A DNA stretch of 6,164 nucleotides, taken from the IMG/VR virus record IMGVR_UViG_2651869696_000003, one strand, 5' to 3'. Under the pieces are notes generated by a model, which was given only the letters and a program-made list of their open reading frames with translations, did no database searches and had not been told where the DNA came from. The position numbers and the translations under genes are program-made. The DNA is from a virus. Taxonomy: Duplodnaviria; Heunggongvirae; Uroviricota; Caudoviricetes. The number at the start of each line of letters is the position of its first letter. Positions within the stretch are counted from its first letter, which is position 1. Of the stretch, positions 5,852-6,164 are shown piece after piece.

Positions 5852-6164
5852 GGTAATGACTCCAACTTATTGATAGTGTTTTATGTTCAGATAATGCCCG
5901 ATGACTTTGTCATGCAGCTCCACCGATTTTGAAAACGACAGCGACTTCCGTCCCAGCCGTGCCAGGTGCTGCCTCAGATTCAGGTTATGCCGCTCAATTC
6001 GCTGCGTATATCGCTTGCTGATTACGTGCAGCTTTCCCTTCAGGCGGGATTCATACAGCGGCCAGCCATCCGTCATCCATATCACCACGTCAAAGGGTGA
6101 CAGCAGGCTCATAAGACGCCCCAGCGTCGCCATAGTGCGTTCACCGAATACGTGCGCAACAACC
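5852..6164 (-). mobile_element. IS1 insertion sequence, right-hand 313 bp (terminal inverted repeat at 5852-5874); the element continues beyond the window end
   Basis: From 5852 the sequence ggtaatgactccaacttattgat is the IS1 terminal inverted repeat as I recall it. It is followed by the insB coding sequence on the - strand. Confidence 0.9.
5867..6164 (-). CDS. insB: IS1 transposase InsB, C-terminal part (5' end lies outside the window)
   Basis: The - strand translation ...[98 protein letters not shown] matches IS1 InsB as I recall it. The frame is open to the window edge; the stop TAA is the reverse complement of 5867-5869. Confidence 0.9.

Follow-up and report, generated by a model that had tools for sequence, protein, structure and literature searches.

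An IS1 end between an AT-rich cargo gene and the expected position of the Q block in a lambdoid prophage: a likely recent transposition into a non-coding spacer

The window, i.e. the whole stretch of 6,164 nucleotides analyzed here (IMG/VR record IMGVR_UViG_2651869696_000003, Caudoviricetes), starts with a lambdoid early-right operon, continues into an AT-rich island with a single long gene on the opposite strand and ends inside an insertion sequence (Table 1). The O, P, ren, NinB and NinE genes are co-linear on one strand, the arrangement that characterizes a lambdoid pR operon with its nin region; the part from NinG to Q is seen in relatives only, in which the Phage_rep_O, Phage_lambda_P, NinG, Metallophos and Antiterm domains were found. 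The island that follows NinE has a GC fraction of about 0.28-0.39, and its only gene, on the - strand, encodes a protein of 590 aa. From position 1 to 5851 the window is 99.9% identical to a prophage of the bovine E. coli strain UTAK-6, with three substitutions, at 717, 1415 and 4613.

Table 1. Positions of the features in the window, with the basis of each assignment
Feature	Position	Strand	Basis and remarks
Lambdoid early-right operon	1..3146	+	O (partial, 9-755), P (752-1453), ren (1450-1740), two hypothetical genes, NinB (2557-2967), NinE (2964-3146); RefSeq annotation of the UTAK-6 locus, Pfam NinB and NinE
590-aa AT-rich orphan "cargo" gene	3650..5422	-	ORF; hypothetical protein WP_000612803.1 in UTAK-6; PHROG 9230, unknown function
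Non-coding spacer, left part	5423..5851	.	Flanked by the cargo gene (- strand) and, in relatives, by the rightward genes from the 38-aa ORF to Q; comparison with UTAK-6 (L001) and 12 loci
(ATTTCT)n hexamer tandem repeat	5739..5785	+	TRF: 7.8 copies, 100% matches; 7 full copies; inside the spacer
GTGTCTTCC, nine bases abutting the IRR	5843..5851	+	Unique in the window; candidate 9-bp target-site duplication
IS1, IRR-proximal 313 bp	5852..6164	-	100% identical to annotated IS1 copies; element runs off the window end; transposase reads leftward
IS1 right terminal inverted repeat (IRR), 23 bp	5852..5874	+	Single exact match to the IS1 IR consensus
3' part of insB	5867..6163	-	Last 98 codons 5870-6163, stop codon 5867-5869; frame open to the window end

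The closest relative carries lesions of its own: in the UTAK-6 locus an IS3-family element (L001, 7676-8889) splits the O replication gene about 61 bp to the left of the point equivalent to window position 1, and the exo gene of the same prophage is frameshifted. From its sequence, this sister prophage is predicted to be already replication-defective.

The final 313 bp of the window constitute the IRR end of an IS1 element, with the 3' part of insB on the - strand; the coordinates and the orientation are those given in the earlier note. The 23-bp terminal inverted repeat, GGTAATGACTCCAACTTATTGAT, has its first base at 5852 and occurs once in the window against an expectation of 0 in 200 shuffles. 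It has the form typical of IS1 termini (about 23 bp, GGTRATG...CCAACTTAYTGAT), one of the two ends being visible. A scan with the repeat consensus found no second IS1 repeat elsewhere in the window, which bears out the statement of the same note that only one end of the element is included. When the - strand is translated, the insB stop codon is placed 15 nt inside the element end, and the last 98 aa of InsB match the Pfam family PF03400 (DDE_Tnp_IS1) with E=8.6e-55 and 185 bits (cutoff 24.1) over profile positions 34-131 of 131, so that an IS1 transposase domain reads toward the IRR. At the nucleotide level, all 313 of the 313 bp are identical to copies labelled "IS1-like element IS1A/IS1B family transposase" from E. 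coli chromosomes and plasmids, whereas the IS1 of phages P1 and RCS47 is 99.6% identical, in an alignment that begins at window position 5852. The terminal repeat, the InsB C-terminus and the extent of the 313 visible bp are thus common to this element and known IS1 (the IS1A/IS1B type of E. coli and its plasmids, and that of phage P1), and there is no difference in the visible part from the IS1A/IS1B-type copies; insA, the frameshift site, the IRL and the target duplication fall beyond the window. A complete IS1 has insA upstream of insB, an A6C -1 frameshift site, the IRL, a length of about 768 bp and an 8-9 bp target duplication. Every defining feature that the window can display is present, which confirms the segment 5852-6164 as IS1 proper.

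The phage-derived part of the window has matches in related genomes that all end at 5851, and the relatives reveal how the locus reads when uninterrupted. The nonamer to the left of 5852 is GTGTCTTCC, just as the earlier note had given it, and in the relatives it directly precedes CTTTTCCCTGAGG; UTAK-6, beyond the equivalent of 5851, reads on as CTTTTCCCTGAGGCTTATCATG. Such an uninterrupted site was recovered in UTAK-6, in all 12 of the related loci that were fetched and, among complete E. coli genomes, in at least 245. To the right of it, UTAK-6 encodes the 38-aa ORF, an HNH endonuclease, NinG, a Ser/Thr phosphatase and a Q-type antitermination protein, in this order, followed by holin, lysozyme, Rz-like and terminase genes. 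The placement of IS1 between the nin-region cargo and the expected position of Q, which the earlier note had put forward, agrees with this gene order. Within the spacer IS1 is situated 429 bp upstream of the start of the cargo gene; on the other side, in relatives with the empty site, the start codons of the 38-aa ORF and of the HNH gene lie 20 bp and 128 bp beyond the insertion point. Comparison with the relatives shows that IS1 disrupts no annotated coding sequence.

The small ORF next to the site has in relatives (L001, 14871-14987) a GAGG ribosome-binding motif and overlaps the start codon of the HNH gene, which occupies L001 14980-15546; it is called by some gene callers (L002, L005) and missed by others. 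The spacer also contains the hexamer repeat, about 320 bp upstream of the start of the 590-aa gene. Eleven of the 12 related loci have uninterrupted (ATTTCT)n runs of 5, 7, 9, 10 or 11 copies, while the array of the remaining one (L009) is degenerate; the repeat number is therefore variable.

The junction between phage and element is rare in the available collections. In 5,426 complete E. coli genomes a megablast search with 5500-6164 returned no junction-spanning match, the stretch 5600-6100 found no such junction among 50,697 phage records, and the 40-nt junction had zero matches in species-representative genome, metagenome and viral contigs. Likewise, the chimeric 83-aa ORF at 5681-5932 has no exact match on record, and the contigs retrieved via the 590-aa protein or P were only long ones without this IS1, P being too common to discriminate. 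The absence of the junction from these collections and the identity of the IS1 part to other copies together point to a recent transposition, specific to a strain or lineage. The junction serves as a private marker of that source strain or lineage, and it marks what is probably a contig-breaking repeat. The longest contig carrying the 590-aa gene measures only 2-10 kb in 943 of 1,280 collection blocks, and this predominance of short contigs indicates that the region is usually repeat-bounded in short-read assemblies. With its end within IS1, the 6,164-base window may be another contig of this kind.

We consider it very likely that a recent transposition brought IS1 into the non-coding spacer of a lambdoid prophage, between the cargo gene and the block that extends from the 38-aa ORF to Q. 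The ancestral state would be the uninterrupted spacer of the relatives, into which one IS1 copy would have jumped in a single strain or lineage, and the join at exactly the first base of the IRR is the signature of cleavage by the IS1 transposase. The same precision makes an assembly chimera at the repeat extremely improbable: the window does terminate within a multi-copy repeat, and the mostly 2-10 kb public contigs with the 590-aa gene suggest that this region often falls on short repeat-bounded contigs, but a random misjoin, unlike transposition, would not be expected to fall on the exact first base of the terminal repeat. Provided that the junction is real, a simple insertion of 768 bp with a 9-bp duplication of GTGTCTTCC, and with the genes from HNH to Q still following, is the outcome that we moderately favor. 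Under simple insertion the IRL would directly precede GTGTCTTCCCTTTTCCCTGAGG (the expected GTGTCTTCC plus CTTTTCCCTGAGG); the reciprocal junction (the IRL end, 0-12 nt and CTTTTCCCTGAGGCTTATCATGC) had zero matches in genome and metagenome contigs. A simple insertion of this type is present in E. coli CP034212, where an IS1 of 768 bp in ninG (L002, 7892-8659) is flanked by a perfect 9-bp duplication, TACGGCTTG. Like the element in the window, it lies in this prophage module and points the same way with respect to the 590-aa gene, but it disrupts the ninG coding sequence, lies about 1 kb further right and differs at 4 of 313 positions, marking it as an independent event. A lesser but appreciable chance is that an adjacent deletion or inversion brought about by IS1, or IS1-IS1 recombination, ended at this element, in which case the DNA beyond it would be something other than HNH-NinG-Q and the prophage would be truncated or rearranged. 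IS1 is on record as deleting adjacent DNA, after which no direct repeats flank the element (PMC9330008), and one sister locus provides an instance: in L017 (ENA ERZ28759882, contig_5), which has its P protein in common with the window, an IS1 (about 8735-9502) sits in the early region between a truncated sieB and a truncated O, differing from the simple case in that there is no target duplication and N-cI-cro-cII have been lost through an IS1-mediated deletion. Deletion endpoints thus do occur in this prophage family. The abundance of IS1, which also fits a recent transposition in general, favors such an endpoint as well (it was found in 4,957 of 5,426 complete E. coli genomes, with a median of 10 places per genome), as does a truncated IS30 beside the same module boundary in O157:H7, which suggests that this boundary is rearrangement-prone. 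Set against this are the perfect duplication around the ninG copy in the same module and the position of the insertion in a spacer where nothing is destroyed, as expected of a tolerated simple insertion. What probability remains beyond simple insertion and rearrangement endpoint would fall to a composite structure or an artefact.

The consequences of the insertion are open to a more drastic interpretation, namely that IS1 is strongly polar on the pR transcript, such that Q and the late genes would be uncoupled from the early operon and the prophage rendered cryptic and non-inducible. We consider this unlikely. IS1 is classically polar in either orientation, Q starts in UTAK-6 1,931 bp downstream of the insertion point on the same transcript, the element adds 768 nt of untranslated RNA, and the immunity region of the source prophage, including N/nutR, lies outside the window. 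Moreover, C moderately exceeds G over the first ~400 nt of the antisense IS1 RNA. Such a bias would fit a Rho loading site and would allow some polarity if antitermination were weak. However, to reach Q, rightward transcription already has to pass through about 2.7 kb that are untranslated and antisense to the cargo gene: from the NinE stop (3146) to ~5870 in empty-site coordinates the + strand is free of annotated genes and has only short mechanical ORFs, so that in the intact phage Q expression seems to need processive antitermination. The N protein (PF25694) is encoded by near-identical relatives, and IS polarity is Rho-dependent and suppressed by N-modified polymerase, its relief by lambda N having reportedly been described by Adhya, Gottesman and de Crombrugghe in 1974. 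Nor does the full IS1, read rightward, offer a convincing intrinsic terminator (one hairpin with a 5-bp stem plus T's on the antisense strand, not above the shuffle expectation), and any polarity would therefore be Rho-dependent. Further, in O157 Sakai, "defective" lambdoid prophages with IS insertions still undergo induction, excision, replication and packaging (Asadulghani et al., 2009, PMC2669165). Those prophages are likewise lambdoid, reside in STEC-type E. coli and combine IS insertions with other lesions; they differ in having other IS elements at other sites, and their induction and packaging were measured. A functional link of IS1 to the cargo gene, either as its vehicle (an arm of a composite transposon) or as its activator (by way of a fusion promoter, transcription reading out of IS1 or the lifting of silencing), is more improbable still. 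In its favor, the transposase and the cargo gene have the same direction, the latter starting 429 bp downstream of IS1; the creation of fusion promoters and the activation of neighboring genes are within the capacity of IS1 (PMC9330008); and the second, independent IS1, that in ninG, is oriented likewise with respect to the cargo. Against the link, two co-oriented insertions are expected by chance half the time, the window contains no further IS1 repeat, and a consensus scan for a fusion promoter found no promoter-like site across the IRR/flank junction on the - strand; an outward-facing -35 candidate in the IRR, TTGGAG, has by eye no suitably spaced -10 in the flank. Delivery of the cargo by IS1, which the earlier note had entertained, is rejected, for in at least 245 complete genomes, as in 12/12 of the fetched relatives, the cargo occurs in the same place with identical flanks but no IS1; this implies that IS1 arrived later. 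Activation of the cargo by IS1 is a low-probability speculation.

Classical examples of polar IS insertions come from phage lambda and from the gal and lac operons (e.g. IS1 r14 and IS2 r32), and the insertion described here resembles them in that an IS lies within an operon, ahead of genes whose expression requires read-through. The polarity of those insertions was reportedly characterized in host operons or in the absence of N. The transcript of the present prophage is, by contrast, expected to be N-antiterminated, so that the analogy would predict relief rather than block. If the insertion is a simple one, its effect on Q during induction would probably be small, the transcript being already antitermination-proficient: IS1 would add 0.77 kb of untranslated RNA lacking a strong intrinsic terminator to the 2.7 kb antisense stretch. 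It would then be nearly neutral, with the potential to recombine with other IS1 copies later on, and would represent no designed or selected feature. The reading of the insertion as polar, and of the prophage as hence cryptic, is unproven and, as judged from the sequence, doubtful, and the death of the prophage should not be inferred from this IS1 insertion alone. At bgl, IS1 breaks up a silenced AT-rich promoter region. There is a very slim chance that the present IS1 is likewise not neutral, in that it would either alter the expression of the 590-aa gene (by read-out or by disrupting silencing as at bgl) or uncouple Q from pR and so lock a prophage that keeps its cargo in the chromosome; either version, if true, would be a case of selected domestication, not of decay. 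Had a deletion ending at the IS1 instead taken away Q and the late genes, what is left would be a prophage remnant that retains the orphan 590-aa cargo gene, and such a remnant would be mildly relevant to how cargo genes become fixed.

IS1 insertions are commonplace in lambdoid prophages of E. coli and Shigella. Both insertions and IS1-mediated deletions in such prophages are already well known, as seen also in the sister loci L002 and L017; the event is an ordinary one, of little importance beyond strain-level annotation. The region around it has further traces of IS activity. In E. coli O157:H7 ECP19-598 (L022, 4160-4900) a truncated IS30 transposase gene lies immediately to the left of the hexamer repeat and the HNH-NinG-phosphatase-Q module, with unrelated genes beyond it, and the hexamer repeat coincides with the left edge of homology to the HNH/NinG/Q module of O157:H7. 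The boundary of the HNH-NinG-phosphatase-Q module appears to be a recurrent site of IS-associated mosaicism.

The 590-aa protein itself had no match in Pfam, PADLOC, NCBIfam or the PDB. Its cluster at 90% identity comprises 1,642 members, all named hypothetical; no paper mentions its accession, and the sources name it only as "hypothetical protein". A single-sequence AlphaFold model reached a pLDDT of 34 and is unusable. Its N-terminus is rich in S, T and N, and the body of the protein is helical and partly hydrophobic; its effector-like look is an impression only. The strains in which it was seen are mainly of bovine or STEC type (O145:H28, O111:H8 and one O157:H7 strain).
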